Shown one piece after another: positions 11,780-57,384 of a stretch of DNA of 64,000 bases (positions within the stretch are counted from its first letter, which is position 1; each line of letters opens with the position of its first letter). A program made the translations under genes and the position numbers. Source of the stretch: an uncultured delta proteobacterium (lineage in GTDB: Bacteria; Myxococcota_A; Polyangia; Polyangiales; B10-G4); assembly GCA_963727445.1 (NCBI GenBank), contig CAVSGI010000006.1, positions 352,001-416,000 on the forward strand, read 5' to 3'. Under the pieces are notes generated by a model that saw only the letters and a list, made by a program, of their open reading frames with translations, had not been told where the DNA came from and ran no database searches.

Positions 11780-12160
11780 CCCCCGAGGAAAAGGCTCGGA
11801 GTCGCGGAGCGGAGGTCTCGCAGAGAGCCCGCGAGGGCTCGGCGCGAGAGCGGAGCGCAGCGGGTCCGAGCCGGGAGTGCGTGCCCCCCGAGGAAAAGGT
11901 TCGGAGTCGCGGAGCGGAGGCCTCGCAGAGAGCCCGCAGGGCTCGGCGCGAGACCGGAGCGCAGCGCCTCCGAGCCGGCATTGCGTCCCCCCCGAGGAAA
12001 AGGCTCGGAGTCGCGGAGCGGAGGTCTCGCAAAGAGCCCGCGAGGGCTCGGCGCGAGACAGGAGCGCAGCGGGTCCGAGCCGGCATTGCGTCCCCCCCGA
12101 GGAAAAGGCTCGGAGTCGCGGAGCGGAGGCCTCGCAGAGAGCCCGCAGGGCTCGGCGCGA
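11780..12160. repeat. Tandem array of ~3.7 x 104-105 bp palindromic (REP-like) units between convergent genes
   Basis: GAGGAAAAGG anchor at 11785, 11890, 11994, 12099; each unit has nested inverted repeats around GAGCCC-GCGA/GCA-GGGCTC. Confidence 0.95.
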
Positions 12161-48396: not shown

Positions 48397-49181
48397 ATGC
48401 TATCGGACCACTCGGAGCGGGACAAGATCACCCGGGTCGCCTTCACCCTCGCGGCGGCCCTGATCCTGAGCGCGCTCTGTCCAATCGGCGCCGAGGCGCT
48501 CGGGGAAACCACCCTCTTCGACGTGCGGCAGGTCGTCTACGGCCCCGCGTCCCGGCCGCGCGAGACGGCGGCGCGTCGCCTCTCCTGGGAGGTGCGCAAG
48601 CGCACCAGCATCGAGACGCGCCTCAGGCCCACCGAGGCGCGCCTCGACGATCCTTCGATCTTCGAGACGCCCTTTCTCTACTGGGCGGGGGACGCGGAGT
48701 TCGAGCCGCTGTCGCGTCGCGGAGATCACGGGCCTGCGGCGTTTCGTCGAGTTCGGCGGCTTCGTCCTCATCGACGACGCCTCCCCCGAGGGCAGCGGCT
48801 TCGACAGCTCCGTGCGCCGCGCGCTCTCCCGCGCGTTCCCGGATTCGCCGCCGACGCCCCTGTCCAGCAGCCACACCATCTACCGTTCTTTCTACCTGCT
48901 CGATCGTCCCGTGGGCCGGGTGCGGGGACCGGCGGCCAGCTCGCGCCATCGAGCACGGCGGCCGGGAGGCGGTGGTCTACAGCCGCCACGATCTCGGCGG
49001 CGCGTGGGCGCGCGACAACCTCGGCACCTGGGAGCACGCGGTGACGCCCGGCGGCGAGCAGCAGCGCGAGAGCGCCATCCGGCTCGGCGTGAACATCGTG
49101 ATGTACGCGCTCTGCCTCGACTACAAGGACGATCAGGTCCACGCGCCGTTCATCATGCGGCGTCGCGGCCCGGTGCCCTGA
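48397..49181 (+). CDS. DUF4159 domain protein (frameshifts near 48717 and 48940)
   Basis: IFETPFLYWAG | LRRFVEFGGFVLIDDA...HTIYRSFYLL | VVYSRHDLGGAW...AIRLGVNIVMYALCLDYKDDQVH across three frames. Confidence 0.8.
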
Positions 49182-52205: not shown

Positions 52206-52787
52206 ATGTTCCGACCGATCGCTCTCGCTGCCGCGCTCGCACTGATGGCTCTCGCCTGCGGCCGCACCCGCACGCCCCCACCGCACCCGCCCGCGGACGC
52301 TTCGTCCGATGCGGCGGACGGCGGCGGTGACGCCGACGCGGCGACCGAGTGCGCACCCCTCGGTCCGGCCGCCTGCCTCGCCGCGGGCTGCATCCCCACC
52401 TACGACGACACTTGCTGTCCGGCCTGTACGCCGATCGGCGCGTGTGCGGATTGCACCAACCCGGACTTCTTCATCTGCCGCACGATGGAGGACGCGTGCA
52501 CCGGGAGCTTCTGCAGCGTCCCCGCGGCCGGCACGTGTGACGCGCCCTCCGTGGATTGCACGAGCACCATGCCCTTCGACGAGGACTCGTGCTCGCTCCC
52601 CGGCTGCGTGCCCGTGGTCGCGGCGGTGGGAGACCCGGAGCTCCCGCCGACTTGCGTGGCCATCAGCGCCGAAAGCTGCACGGTCTCGTGTCGCAGCCTG
52701 CCGCCGGAGTGCCCGGACGGAACCACCGCCGAGGGCGACGGCAGCTGCTGGACCGGCCAGTGCATTCCGGCGTCTGTTTGTAGCTGA
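52206..52787 (+). CDS. Cys-rich lipoprotein
   Basis: Lipobox ALAC; about 20 Cys in ~150 aa. Confidence 0.8.
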   Translation: MFRPIALAAALALMALACGRTRTPPPHPPADASSDAADGGGDADAATECAPLGPAACLAAGCIPTYDDTCCPACTPIGACADCTNPDFFICRTMEDACTGSFCSVPAAGTCDAPSVDCTSTMPFDEDSCSLPGCVPVVAAVGDPELPPTCVAISAESCTVSCRSLPPECPDGTTAEGDGSCWTGQCIPASVCS

Positions 52788-52816
52788 CGCGCCCCGGGGG
52801 GTGAACGGGGGAGGAG

Positions 52817-52958
52817 GCATCGGGCGGCGCCCGATGCTGGGGAACGGGAGCGGGAACGGGAACGGGCACGTGGCTGTAGCCGTGCATGGCGGAGCGGACG
52901 GCAGTCCGCGGAGCTGCACGGGTACAGGCTCGTCGACGCATCGGGCGCAGCCCGATGC
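52817..52958. repeat. Two copies of a 21-bp REP-like palindrome
   Basis: GCATCGGGC-GGC-GCCCGATGC (52817-52837) and GCATCGGGC-GCA-GCCCGATGC (52938-52958). Confidence 0.85.
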
Positions 52959-52963
52959 TAGTC

Positions 52964-53188
52964 AACGGGAGCGTGAACGGGAGCGGGAGGGGGAACGGGA
53001 ACGGGAGCGTGAACGTGAACGGGAACGTGAACGTGAACGGGAGCGGGAACGGGAACGGGAGCGGGAACGGGAGCGTGAGCGTGAACGGGAGCGTGAACGT
53101 GAATGGGAACGTGAACGTGAACGTGAACGGGAGGGGGAACGGGAACGGGAGCGGGAACGGGAACGTGAACGGGAGCGGGGATGGGAGT
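52964..53188 (+). repeat. Hexamer simple-sequence tract G(G/T)GA(A/G)C, ~37 units (plus a short patch at 52840-52870)
   Basis: Mixed GGGAAC/GGGAGC/GTGAAC/GTGAGC units read directly. Confidence 0.95.
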
Positions 53189-53213
53189 GCGCGGCTCGGT
53201 GGGTCGTCTGATC

Positions 53214-53282
53214 GTGTTTCTTGGTCATCGCTGAGACCCCTTCTGGGTTGGGAAAGGGGTCTCAGCGATGACCAAGAAACAC
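53214..53282 (+). promoter_or_regulatory. Perfect 29-bp inverted repeat covering the RBS and start codon of four-helix-bundle gene 1
   Basis: GTGTTTCTTGGTCATCGCTGAGACCCCTT (53214-53242), 11-nt loop, AAGGGGTCTCAGCGATGACCAAGAAACAC (53254-53282). Confidence 0.85.
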
Positions 53283-53609
53283 TCTGATTCGATGATTCAT
53301 CACGACTTGCGTGTCTGGCAGCGGGCGCGAGCCCTCGTGCAGCTCGTGTATGCGAACCTGCCGGCCGATGCGGAGCTTCGGTCGCAGGTGAAGCGGGCTT
53401 CGACTTCGGTCGGGGCGAACATCGCCGAGGGTTGCACGCAGAGCTCGCGGGCGATGCGGCGCAAGCACTACGAGATTGCCCGCGGTTCGGCCGTGGAGAC
53501 CGTGGCGTGCTTCGAGTTGGCGGAGGCGACGGGGGATCGGCTACCGGTCGAGGAAGTCCGCAGCCACGGGGCGGCGATCGCCGCGATGCTCACCAGGATG
53601 CTGCGGTGA
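53268..53609 (+). CDS. Four helix bundle protein (23S rRNA-IVP / Avd-like, TIGR02436-type)
   Basis: DLRVWQRA...LRSQVKRASTSVGANIAEG...IARGSAVET family signature. Confidence 0.9.
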   Translation: MTKKHSDSMIHHDLRVWQRARALVQLVYANLPADAELRSQVKRASTSVGANIAEGCTQSSRAMRRKHYEIARGSAVETVACFELAEATGDRLPVEEVRSHGAAIAAMLTRMLR

Positions 53610-53611
53610 AG

Positions 53612-53650
53612 CACTCTGAGCCCGGAGGGGTTTCCCTCCGGGCTCGGGTG
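53612..53650. terminator. Hairpin filling the gap between the convergent four-helix-bundle genes
   Basis: GAGCCCGGAGGG-GTTT-CCCTCCGGGCTC (53618-53645), extendable with G-U pairs; no U-tract. Confidence 0.6.
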
Positions 53651-53652
53651 GC

Positions 53653-53979
53653 TCAGCGATGGATCATGCGAAAGAGGGTGGCGGCGGCATGATCGAAATG
53701 GTCCTCGGCGGCGTTGCACTCCGCCGCGCTCAGATAGCCCCAGGCCACGGCGATGCGCAGCGCCTGTCTGGCTTCTCTCGCTGAGTTCATCGCGACCGAG
53801 AGCCGCTCGGGCCGATGCCCTTTTCGCCCCCACTCGCCCTCGGCCGCGTTGAGCGCCGCCGAGCTGGCGGCGCGCCGCAGCTGCGACGCGAGGTCGCGGT
53901 CTTCGTGTTGGATCCTTTCGGCCAGTGGCCGGGTGGCCTCGATGGCTTCGAGGAGGATGTCGTGTACCAGCTTGCTCAT
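53653..53979 (-). CDS. Four helix bundle protein (second, divergent subfamily)
   Basis: DRDLASQLRRAASSAALNAAEG...AMNSAREARQALRIAVAWGYL; AAGGAG 9 nt upstream of the ATG. Confidence 0.9.
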   Translation of the reverse strand: MSKLVHDILLEAIEATRPLAERIQHEDRDLASQLRRAASSAALNAAEGEWGRKGHRPERLSVAMNSAREARQALRIAVAWGYLSAAECNAAEDHFDHAAATLFRMIHR

Positions 53980-53984
53980 GAGGG

Positions 53985-54055
53985 GTTGCTCCTTCCGCCC
54001 ACGTCAGGGGCTTCGCCCCGCCCGAAGGGCCCCTGACGTGGGCGGAAGGAGCAAC
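53985..54055 (-). promoter_or_regulatory. Perfect 27-bp inverted repeat sequestering the Shine-Dalgarno of four-helix-bundle gene 2
   Basis: GTTGCTCCTTCCGCCCACGTCAGGGGC (53985-54011), 17-nt loop, GCCCCTGACGTGGGCGGAAGGAGCAAC (54029-54055). Confidence 0.85.
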
Positions 54056-54060
54056 GCCGG

Positions 54061-54408
54061 GCGTTGGCCGCAACCTCGCGACTTGCGACCGCCTGGCGGT
54101 CACGACTGCGGGCGTTGGCCGCAACGTCGGGACTTGCGACCGCCTGGCGGTCACGACGGCGGGCGTTGGCCGCAACGTCGGGACTTGCGACCGCCTGGCG
54201 GTCACAACGGCGGGCGTTGAGCGCAACGTCGGGACTTGCGACCGCCTGGCGGTCACAACGGCGGGCGTTGGCCGCAACGTCGGGACTTGCGACCGCCTGG
54301 CGGTCACAACGGCGGGCGTTGAGCGCAACGTAGGGACTTGCGACCGCATGGCGGTCACAACGGCGCGCGTTGACCGCAACGTAGGGACTTGCGACCGCAT
54401 GGCGGTCA
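54061..54408. repeat. Tandem array of 7 x 51 bp units, each with two hairpins
   Basis: Units start at 54061, 54112, 54163, 54214, 54265, 54316, 54367. Consensus GCGTTG-GCCG-CAACG-TCGGGAC-TTGCGACCGC-CTG-GCGGTCACAA-CGGCGG. Confidence 0.97.
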
Positions 54409-54505
54409 ACTAACTCCGATGGGAATGATCCCGCTCCCGTTCTCTGTCCCCACTCACCCACCCATTCCCAGTCCCAGACCCAAGCGCAGCATGGGGTCGA
54501 GACGA

Positions 54506-54734
54506 CGGGAACGGGAATGGGAGCCGGAGCGCGAACGGGAACGGGAACGGGAGCGGGAACGTGAGCGTGAGCGTGAAGGGAACGGGAACGGGAACGGGAA
54601 CGTGAGCGTGAGCGTGAGACGGGAACGTGAACGCGAACGGGAATGGGAACGGGAACGGGAACGGGAACGGGAGCTGAGCGGGAACGTGAACGGGAGCGGG
54701 AGCGGGAGCGGGAATGGGAGCGGGAACGGGAGCG
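54506..54734 (+). repeat. Second G(G/T)GA(A/G)C hexamer tract, ~38 units, abutting the cheA stop codon
   Basis: Same unit set and same orientation as 52964-53188. Confidence 0.95.
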
Positions 54735-57384
54735 TCAGCTGTCGGTTTCGCCTCGTCTGGCTAGCTCGCGGCTGATGGCTTTGAGCACTTCCGTGGCGTC
54801 GGCGGGCTTGGTGAGGTAGGCGTCGACGCCTGCGTCGAAGCCGCGGATGCGGTCGATGCGGTCCTCCTTCGAGGTGACCATCACGATGGGGACGTCGCGG
54901 TAGGCCGGCATCGCGCGAAGGCGGCGGGTCAGCTCGTAGCCGTCCATGGTGGGCATCACCACATCGGTGGACACCAGGTCGAATCGCTCGTGGGCGGCGG
55001 CGGCGAGGCCTTCGGCGCCGTTGTGGGCGACCACCACGCGGTAGCCGGCCTCGGTGAGGATCCGGCGCAGCGCTTCGCGCACCGTGTCCGAGTCCTCCAC
55101 CACCAGGATCGCGGGCGCACCCTCTCGTTCGGTGACGGCCGCCTGGGCACCGCGCGAGGGGCCGACCCCGCGGATCGCCATCGCGACCAGGGTGGGAACG
55201 TCGAGGATCAGCACGCAGCGCTCGCCCACCAGCGTCGCCCCCGCCGCCCCCGGCACGCGGGTGAGCAGCGAGCCGAGGGATTTGATCACGATCTCCTGGC
55301 GCCCGATGAAGCCGTCGCAGGCGAGGCCGTAGCGGTGGCCGGCGATGTCCACCAGCACCACCGGCAGCTCTTCGGTCATGCGCCCGCTCGCGCCGCCGGC
55401 GCCGATCACCTCCGCGAGGCGGATCAGCGGGATCTCTTCGCCGCCGTCGTGAAGGAGCTCGCGATCCGTCGTCATGCGAACCCGCGATGGCGGCGCGGCG
55501 ACGGTGCGCTCCACCAGGTCGAGGGGCACGGCGTAGACCTGACCCGAGACGCGGAGGAGCAGGACCTGGACGATGGCCAGAGTGAGGGGGAGGCGGATCT
55601 CGAAGCTGCTCCCGGCGCCGAGCTCCGACTCCACCGCGACCGTACCCTTGAGCCGCCCGATGGTGTCGCGCACCACGTCCATGCCGACGCCGCGACCCGA
55701 GAGATCGCTGACCCGCCCGGCGGTGCTGAAGCCCGGCCGGAAGATCAGGTCGAAGACCTCGTCGTCGGCGAGGCCCTCGGCCTCTGCGCGTGCGAGGAGC
55801 CCGTTCTCGATCGCCTTGGCGCGCACCTTCGCCACGTCGATGCCGCCGCCGTCATCGGCGATGCGGATCACGATCTGGTTGCCGCGATGGGAGGCCGAGA
55901 GCGTCATCGAGCCCTCCGCGCTCTTGCCGCGCGCTTCGCGCACGTCGGGGAGCTCGATCCCGTGGTCGATGGCGTTTCGCACGAGGTGCAGGAGCGGATC
56001 GTCGAGCTGCTCGACGAGCACCTTGTCGAGCTCGGTCTCGCCACCTTCGAGGTCGAGGCGCACCTGCTTGCCGAGCTTGAGCGCGATCTCCCGCACCGTG
56101 CGGTGGTACTTGGACCAGCTGCGACCGATGGGCACCATCCGCAGCTTCATCACCTGATCGCGGAGCTCGCCGGCCACGAAGTCAATCTGCTGGCTCGCCG
56201 CGTCGAGGTCGCCGCTCAGCTGCTCGAAGGCGCGGTGGATCCGGCCGAGCTCGGTGGAGATCCCTTGAGAGCGCACCGCGCTGGTGCGCACCCGCGCGCC
56301 GTTCGGCGGCGCCGCGCCTCCGCGCTTGCGCTCGGTCCGCGCGCTGCGCCTCTGATCGTCGAGCTCGCGCGCCACCGAGCCGAGCCCACCGAGCCCCACC
56401 GTCAGCCGGCCTTTGGCAATCACCAGCTCGCCCACCAGGTTCATCAGGAGGTCGAGCTTCTCGAAGTCGATGCGGAGCGTCTGATGGCGAACGTTGGTCT
56501 TGCGCTCCGCCCCGGCGGTGGGCTTGGGGGCGGGCGCCGCACCCCGCGCCGCGATCGCACCCGCAGACTCGGGCACGCCCGTGAGCTTGGCGAGGGCGGG
56601 GCCGATGTCCACGTCGATGTCGCCCCGCGCTGCCGCCGCGTGCACGATGGCGGTGAGGGCGTCGAGGGAGCCGAGGAGCGCGTCGATCACCGCCTGATCC
56701 GCGCGCCGGCGTCCCTCGCGGACGTGGCCGACCAGAATCCTCGGCCGCGTGGGCGAGGCGGGTCATCCGTTTGAGGCCCACGAAGGCGCTCGACCCTTTG
56801 AGGGTGTGCAGGTCGCGGAAGATCGCGGCGACGAGCTCGCTGTCGTCGGGCGCGCGCTCCAGCTCCACCAGGCGCTCGCTCAGCCCTTCGAGGCGCTCCT
56901 GACACTCCTCGAGGAAGGGGTCGATCATGTCGGCGTCGACGGTGGGCTGCCAGGTGCCGTCGTCCTCGTCGTGCGCGGCGTGGGCGGCGCCGCCGCTCGG
57001 ACCGTGCACTGCCTCGGGCGGCGGGAGCCCGGCGCGAAGCGCCTCGGCTGCCTCGGCAATCCTCTCGGCGTCGAGGCGGGCGCCGCTCTCGTCGGGCCGC
57101 GCGAGGTCGGCGAAGGCGTCGACCAACGCGTCGGCGGCGCTCTCGAGATGCTCGCGGAGCTCGTCGCTGGGCGGCCGTGGGCCGAGCTGCTCGACGCGCG
57201 CTCGGATCGCCCCGGCGAGCGCCGCGACCTCCGGCACCCCCACCACGTGGGCGTCGAGCTCCACCGCGGTGAGCGCTTCGAGGAGCGCGTCGACGTTGCC
57301 ACCCTCGCCGCCGAGGATCTCCCGGATGCGGTTCGCGAGGTCCGTGCCTTCGGCGACGAAGGCGGTGAAGGCATCGCTGTTCAC
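54735..57384 (-). CDS. cheA: Hybrid CheA histidine kinase (Hpt-like x2, dimerisation, HATPase, CheW, REC); frameshift near 56737
   Basis: IFRDLHTLKGSS; extra T in GAG GAT T CTG; LDLLMNLVGEL, LHLVRNAIDHGIE, GFSTA..SGRGVGMDVV, LPLTLAI; REC ILVVEDS...TDVVMP...YLTKP. Confidence 0.92.

Follow-up and report, generated by a model that had tools for sequence, protein, structure and literature searches.

The gap of about 1.95 kb between a lipoprotein gene (stop codon 52785-52787) and the stop codon of cheA (54735) was found to hold one copy of a cassette that is most probably mobile (probability about 0.85). Coordinates without a prefix refer to the window, which is the whole 64,000-nucleotide stretch of DNA that was analysed. 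Two genes of the PF05635 family are the sole genes in the gap, and no transposase accompanies them, in agreement with the initial annotation, which had described a cassette free of enzymes; every part that it had listed was found where it had been placed and in the same order. The features are as follows.

52788..52866, plus strand: ragged left end, with a truncated piece of the 97-bp unit and a short GGGAAC run, right after the host stop codon
52817-52837 and 52938-52958: palindromes, the first within the truncated 97-bp unit piece
52868..52964, no strand assigned: structured unit of about 97 bp, embedded in the hexamer tract
52964-53187, plus strand: left hexamer tract, 36 units of GGGAAC and variants
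53190..53311, plus strand: leader hairpin A, with a perfect 29-bp core (53214-53242/53254-53282)
53268-53609, plus strand: gene A, four-helix bundle, PF05635/TIGR02436, 113 aa, or 105 aa from the second ATG (53292)
about 53618-53645, no strand assigned: GC-rich hairpin common to both gene 3' ends, without a U tail
53979-53653, minus strand: gene B, four-helix bundle, PF05635/TIGR02436, 108 aa
53982-54058, minus strand: leader hairpin B, arms 53982-54011/54029-54058, 27 bp perfect
54052-54408, no strand assigned: REP-like array, 7.0 x 51 bp, 94% matches
54429-54475, plus strand: C-rich inverted hexamer patch
54477-54498, plus strand: small hairpin between the C-rich patch and the right tract
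54505-54731, plus strand: right hexamer tract, 38 units, oriented like the left tract and reaching the cheA stop

The long inverted repeats noted at the outset are present, but instead of enclosing the genes they are placed one at each gene start. The 51-bp unit, first described as a double hairpin, folds weakly when taken singly (DNA z -1.5 and -2.0). The 97-bp unit gave a DNA fold z of -6.4; it is present in three copies within the cassette on contig C27, and it recurs in the same-genus genome G001, in gene-less tracts as well as in in-frame tracts within genes. The GC-rich hairpin between the genes was kept in all five cassette copies of this genome and did not register as an intrinsic terminator. 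Three of the five copies contain a C-rich run and two lack it, and in the window the patch could base-pair over 23 nt (87%) with the left tract, and also with the nearer right tract. Rfam searches of the window and of eight related loci returned weak miRNA-like and mraW hairpin matches, all below the gathering scores, and no rRNA family matches were found within 52500-55000. A promoter scan yielded no sigma-70-like site and a single terminator-like match, at chance level.

Both proteins were assigned by profile scores, with 74.7 (A) and 42.9 bits (B) against a PF05635 cut-off of 33.8, and 70 and 47.2 against a TIGR02436 cut-off of 24. The two share a distant likeness only and belong to separate subfamilies of PF05635/TIGR02436. 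Protein A was modelled with high confidence (pLDDT 96) as a four-helix bundle, nearest to Xcc0516 (2GSC; Z 16.4, rmsd 1.5 A, 29% identity, TM 0.78-0.85), with BT_0352 (2RLD) at Z 15.6; the matches to Avd chains (Z 11.5-12.6, rmsd 1.8-2.1 A, 8% identity) are close to the level of unrelated helical bundles. Protein A is mildly basic (K+R 17, D+E 12) and B is neutral (15 of each). A search of 151 genomes of the phylum returned relatives of B at E<=1e-10 in 8, which all belong to the same class.

The locus is not unique. Sixteen PF05635 matches were found in this genome (G000), ten of which make up five convergent A/B pairs at unrelated loci. Every pair begins shortly past a host stop codon and is flanked by GGGAAC tracts in the same orientation on both sides, and the cassettes measure 1.3-1.9 kb. 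The C27 copy aligns to window positions 52857-54734. It lies in a different gene neighbourhood from the window copy on C6; the cores of the two are 98-100% identical, and they carry different numbers of array repeats and of the structured unit. In one C14 copy both genes contain frameshifts, and leader hairpin B is deleted there. The five copies are truncated to different lengths on the left, and the cassettes end in ragged direct tracts; neither terminal inverted repeats nor a target duplication could be seen when the ends of all five and one clean empty site were inspected. The remaining family genes, of types C and D, come with a hexamer of their own and with a separate hairpin that covers the start, and decayed family copies, frameshifted or truncated, are also present.

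The 51-bp array was rejected as an integral part of the cassette, given that only 2 of the 19 loci of this family in the genome lie at cassette genes (both beside gene B) and that three of the five cassette copies lack it; the C27 copy has 12 units. The array belongs to a separate REP-like passenger family. Two arrays of this kind flank an ORF with RAYT-like motifs at G000:C10:250509-251306 (single paralogue, flanked by 52-bp arrays), for which no Pfam or NCBIfam match was obtained and only an Atlas lead to Y1_Tnp.

Comparison with close relatives, which the initial annotation had proposed, was performed chiefly with G001. Four of the pair sites were located there, all without a cassette and one of them cleanly so, and the purM site was not located. 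At the clean site, the flanks of the C14a copy lie 23 bases apart in G001 (C304) and 1351 apart here, with no tract in G001. The C25 flanks are 42 bases apart in G001 (from coordinates only, and with an extra gene here too), no tract is seen at the bamA site, where the contig ends after 126 bases, and the rplQ site has neither tract nor cassette. The window site is free of the cassette in G001 and G005, but the neighbouring gene differs, and with a different gene there in G001 it is not a clean empty site. In the other direction, the G001 cassette sites L042, L046 and L047 are empty here and L045 is ambiguous. Five dispersed copies, a near-identical recent duplication, empty orthologous sites and the enrichment of repeats at these genes support the earlier suggestion of a self-contained mobile or expanding element.

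The 3' arm of hairpin A covers the ribosome-binding site, the ATG at 53268 and the first codons, with a predicted G-U-containing extension over the second ATG at 53292, and that of hairpin B covers AAGGAG (53994-53989). Folding of the leader RNAs gave z values of -10.7 (A) and -7.3 (B), with 0 of 200 shuffles for both, so that each fold lies far outside what chance would give. In a genome-wide census of perfect hairpins (arms of at least 20 bp, loops up to 30), 11 of 25 lay at the starts of PF05635-family genes. Enrichment of repeats in the flanks, also put forward earlier as a comparison to make, was far above controls: a helix of at least 13 bp over the Shine-Dalgarno region was present in 38 of the 80 family genes with usable flanks (1 of 150 controls) and an upstream tract in 45 (0 of 150 controls), counts that come from related copies and are not independent, and that for the Shine-Dalgarno region include some gene starts misplaced by automatic calling. 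Among 22 genes of five further genomes the helix was found in five and an upstream tract in six; G022 and 17 of these 22 genes show little covering of the Shine-Dalgarno sequence, so that a translational lock is not universal.

Compensatory pairs were observed in all six leader families (30 of 214 columns), and leader A carries compensatory changes relative to G001. On the mRNA strand the pair cells comprised 1346 Watson-Crick, 50 G-U and 17 A-C combinations, and the excess of G-U over A-C favours folding of the sense-strand RNA over that of the antisense DNA. A structured motif of about 170 nt is common to the leaders of several genomes, in an alignment in which row L046 is misplaced and covers coding sequence. 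GNA-triloop mini-hairpins are distributed differently, with 57 antisense and 11 sense in 72 leaders, versus 362 antisense and 304 sense in controls of 25 times more sequence. GNA loops are unusually stable in DNA. The two foldings can be compatible, in that RNA would serve the translational lock and single-stranded DNA would serve movement. Of 43 nearest upstream host genes, 24 were co-oriented and 5 divergent, with 14 unclear; the genome baseline is 62% co-oriented.

Proteins A and B are under purifying selection: across the four intact copies, with frameshifted and partial genes left out, mean dN/dS values were 0.05 and 0.11, respectively, at dS of up to 1.4; four other families gave 0.07-0.26. 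The coexistence of conserved proteins with decayed copies is what an element would show if its spreading lineages depended on the protein, and the selection also agrees with a benefit to the host. Matches to the PF05635 family were found in 18 of the 31 genomes of the order, at 0 to 32 copies per genome, with 13 genomes lacking any. The loci studied were 40 stretches chosen for pairs and multi-copy families, plus 30 other loci. Convergent pairs occur elsewhere in G001, G009, G011, G022 and G023; direct tracts flank the pairs in G009, G011, G022 and G023, and tandem pairs are present in G023. A separate clade of the family is enclosed by inverted tracts. A quick tree placed the proteins in genome-specific clades, and the partners vary by genome (A+B here, A+C in G001).

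The hexamer of the tracts differs among genomes. Counted as overlapping matches of exact units, GGGAAC x5 gave 139 matches here, 192 in G001, 2 in G029 and 0 in 28 of the 31 genomes; GGCACT x4 gave 81 in G009 and 4 across two other genomes; and GGAATC x5 gave 459 in G022 and 8 in G001. The expanded hexamer of each genome is the word that stands beside its own family genes. Related genomes share hexamer words by descent. Of the 106 merged GGGAAC tracts in this genome, 19 are no more than 1 kb from a family gene and the rest lie farther away. Solo GGGAAC tracts were considered as gene-less cassette copies, and this was rejected on finding that most of the 35 listed resemble, by eye, linkers within genes. 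Many tracts appear to be read in frame as dipeptide linkers in host proteins, and the places of the in-frame tracts of G001, some of which include the 97-bp unit, are taken here by ordinary linkers or by nothing. This genome also contains 21 GAGACG-type tracts, a word that was not seen at family genes.

The full account favoured here, to which we give somewhat less than even odds, is that of a selfish cassette whose proteins help to copy their own cassette and are kept mostly untranslated by the hairpins, as their folds predict. As in IS200, the leader hairpins would prevent translation, chiefly of transcripts that read through from host genes. By analogy with their structural relatives, A and B may form pentamer rings of the Xcc0516/Avd type, and these rings would bind the structured nucleic acid of the cassette itself. 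Movement would pass through a single-stranded DNA stage, followed by host recombination or repair between hexamer tracts. Recombination of this kind would give ragged ends, tandem copies, partner swapping, exchange of tract modules and no target duplications; the direct tracts, ragged ends, tandem pairs of G023, swapped partners and shared modules point to recombination through the tracts. Against the account, the clean empty site carries no tract, so that integration into a ready-made tract is not seen there, and both RAYT-like genes of this genome lie beside tracts. In a further form, which is speculative and unlikely, the cassettes would make up a class of mobile element without an enzyme, whose Avd-fold ring would recruit a host polymerase or recombinase, copy itself, and seed and expand its own hexamer genome-wide. 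Such seeding would explain why the expanded hexamer matches the word beside the family genes, and why in-frame tracts, even with the 97-bp unit, stand in host proteins.

Several other routes were weighed. Spread through an RNA copy, in which the RNA of the cassette is bound by an Avd-fold ring that brings in a reverse transcriptase (RT) encoded elsewhere, with the tracts as products of slippage or template jumping, is unlikely. It draws on Avd, the sole studied relative, being an RT cofactor (in the available part of bioRxiv 10.1101/2023.10.23.563531), on the match of the model of A to Avd chains, on left ends truncated to varying lengths, on GNA hairpins lying on the would-be cDNA strand, and on the presence of at least one RT in each of G000, G001, G005, G009, G011 and G022. 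However, the sole RVT_1 match in this genome (86% complete) is retron-like and lies on another contig (C1), searches of G010 (9 copies, 92% complete) and G023 (54% complete) yielded no RT, RTs also occur in genomes without the PF05635 family, and the Avd match has 8% identity and a strength close to that seen with unrelated helical bundles. We consider it improbable that the cassette is a passenger moved in trans, in the manner of REPINs, by an HUH nuclease of the RAYT or IS91 type that reads single-stranded DNA hairpins. The lack of a visible target duplication, the strand bias of the GNA hairpins, the two RAYT-like genes here that adjoin hexamer tracts, the Y1-like ORF flanked by the 51-bp array family and the IS91-like genes that adjoin D-type copies would all suit such a nuclease. 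At E<=1e-5, however, no Y1_Tnp was found in G005, G009, G010 or G022, and no Y2_Tnp was found in G001, G010 or G022; divergent HUH proteins escape Pfam. With 9 family copies, G010 lacks RT, Y1 and Y2 alike at the thresholds used, and none of the three was accepted as a common helper, none being common to all expanded genomes. RAYT as the owner of the hexamer tracts is unsupported outside this genome: only 1 of the 27 RAYT loci listed (of 30) has a hexamer tract above threshold, and G030 has 45 RAYT-like genes and no PF05635 match. Passive carriage would also leave a dN/dS of 0.05 unexplained. The term 'non-autonomous', used initially as one option for a mobile or expanding element, is doubtful in view of the strong purifying selection and of the lack of any helper-enzyme family that tracks the expansions.

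Selection of that strength would suit an RNA regulator or a stress or defence module that is useful to the host, spread incidentally by repeat-driven duplication and kept by host selection. Conserved leaders with compensatory pairs, the motif of about 170 nt in several genomes and a report of the PF05635 family in cas loci (in the available part of PMC3936711) agree with it. Since positions are not shared even within the genus, copy number ranges from 0 to 32 with 13 of 31 genomes lacking a match, and decayed copies exist, this is quite unlikely, and no finding points to the defence role that had been raised initially. Least probable by far is that A and B are toxins silenced by the hairpins in an addiction system resembling type I toxin-antitoxin pairs. 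The predicted sequestration of the Shine-Dalgarno sequences in the leader folds is as such a system would have it, but the proteins are soluble four-helix bundles of 108-113 aa and not small membrane peptides, no antitoxin was identified, and growth of E. coli was not slowed by expression of a family member (in the available part of PMC4990558).

Among known systems, the cassette is related to the ORF-bearing intervening sequences of rRNA, yet it stands outside these, diversity-generating retroelements (DGRs) and insertion sequences. The initial statement that it fits neither a DGR nor an rRNA intervening sequence was upheld, as it is flanked by a lipoprotein gene and cheA and the genome has no DGR RT. 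The S23p ORF-bearing 23S rRNA intervening sequence of Coxiella and Leptospira is described as selfish and, in Coxiella, as decaying; it shares with the cassette the PF05635 family, short tandem repeats just 5' of the ORF (heptamers in S23p) and a block of translation at the Shine-Dalgarno sequence, which for the cassette is predicted (available part of PMC4990558). It resides in 23S rRNA with its ORF in the loop of one stem, whereas the cassette lies outside rRNA, has many copies past the stops of protein genes, places its genes behind leader hairpins between direct tracts, and has conserved proteins in convergent pairs. DGR Avd (PDB 4DWL, 8UB7), like Xcc0516 and BT_0352 (2GSC, 2RLD), has the same fold as the model of A, and Avd binds an 11-bp UNCG stem-loop with all five protomers (available part of bioRxiv 10.1101/2023.10.23.563531). 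In DGRs an RT stands beside Avd, in contrast to this genome, and among the repeats of 52600-54900 no template/variable repeat pair differing at adenines was found. IS200 is a very small element present in multiple copies, and a hairpin over the Shine-Dalgarno sequence silences its only gene (available part of PMC4513863). The cassette resembles it in being small, multi-copy and furnished with a hairpin over the Shine-Dalgarno sequence (silencing being predicted here), and differs in having no transposase, no fixed ends and terminal hexamer tracts. REP/REPIN-RAYT systems are dispersed intergenic repeats close behind stop codons. Repeats past stop codons, and a 51-bp array beside its own Y1-like gene, recall these; what sets the cassette apart is that its conserved genes encode no nuclease and that its expansions do not follow the presence of RAYTs. 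The GGGAATC heptamers of Xanthomonas and Nostoc are likewise lineage-specific, G-rich intergenic tandem repeats skewed towards one neighbouring ORF; the available part of PMC4692102 gives them no general link to mobile elements and makes no mention of 'four helix'. The cassette words differ in being hexamers that also occur in frame inside genes. A literature search, with most subscription papers and supplements outside its coverage, found no description of the cassette layout.

Structures have been solved for the widespread PF05635 family, which has no assigned function; the cassette offers a compact unit in which it can be tested. This locus also links the family to the lineage-specific expansions of 6-7-base repeats that occur in bacteria. 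If the protein does drive its own spread, the cassette would represent a route of mobility with neither a transposase nor an RT in the element, and would be a source of low-complexity linkers in host proteins.

A structured leader of about 170 nt (positions 2775-2944 of locus L087) was conserved, with homologues in loci L088, L042, L199, L207, L050, L052, L057, and L059, and was common to several four-helix-bundle subfamilies across genomes. Its loops were pyrimidine-rich on the sense strand and no Rfam match was obtained among the loci scanned; together with its homologues, the leader is regarded as a candidate new structured motif. The structured 97-bp unit of the hexamer tracts was found in frame within coding linkers of the same-genus genome G001 (L131 and L134, with two copies in L134), and the orthologous linkers of the genome under study (G000) were without it.

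Within the family, loci L001-L004 and L022 grouped apart as a 'classic' clade, in which the short-repeat tracts enclosing the genes were inverted, not direct; the L001 copy was located after the end of a gene labeled cas6-like by eye. Two A copies (G000:C25:75830 and C14:127897) had lost one base after the first ATG; the resulting short ORF upstream ends in a stop codon that overlaps with the second ATG. The C25 protein was still conserved. Separately, one gene at window 48397-49181 was split over two frames by an apparent frameshift, as judged from the ORF list.

RAYT-like ORFs (motifs judged by eye) with 51- or 52-bp arrays on either side
G000:C10:250509-251306, RAYT-like ORF (L127/L177)
G000:C27:412259-413023, RAYT-like ORF (L179), related to the C10 ORF

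Pfam and NCBIfam profile searches returned no match for either ORF, and an Atlas lead pointed to Y1_Tnp. Four homologues were present in genome G005 of the same order, two of them with arrays of about 50 bp. These ORFs and their arrays are likely a divergent REP/RAYT family. A REP-like 105-bp array was observed at window 11780-12160, and similar 98-130-bp arrays were dispersed across G000.

RAYT-like genes adjoining mixed hexamer tracts
G000:C9:168541-169248, RAYT-like gene
G000:C10:985539-986235, RAYT-like gene

This RAYT-like family was matched 45 times in G030 and 11 times in G002 (both of the same order), and tracts were absent at most relatives among the matches listed. A retron-like reverse transcriptase, preceded by two large unnamed genes, was located on G000:C1 (L089:3475-4755); its best match, the retron St85 family, was below the cut-off.

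D-type four-helix-bundle copies
G000:C9:916.4k
G000:C9:924.0k
G000:C21:11.4k
G000:C12:56.9k

All four were preceded by repeated 3' ends of an ettA-like ABC-F gene, and IS91-like genes were next to some D-type copies or fragments in G000. The ABC-F 3' ends are possibly a hotspot of site-specific integration for the D-type copies behind them.
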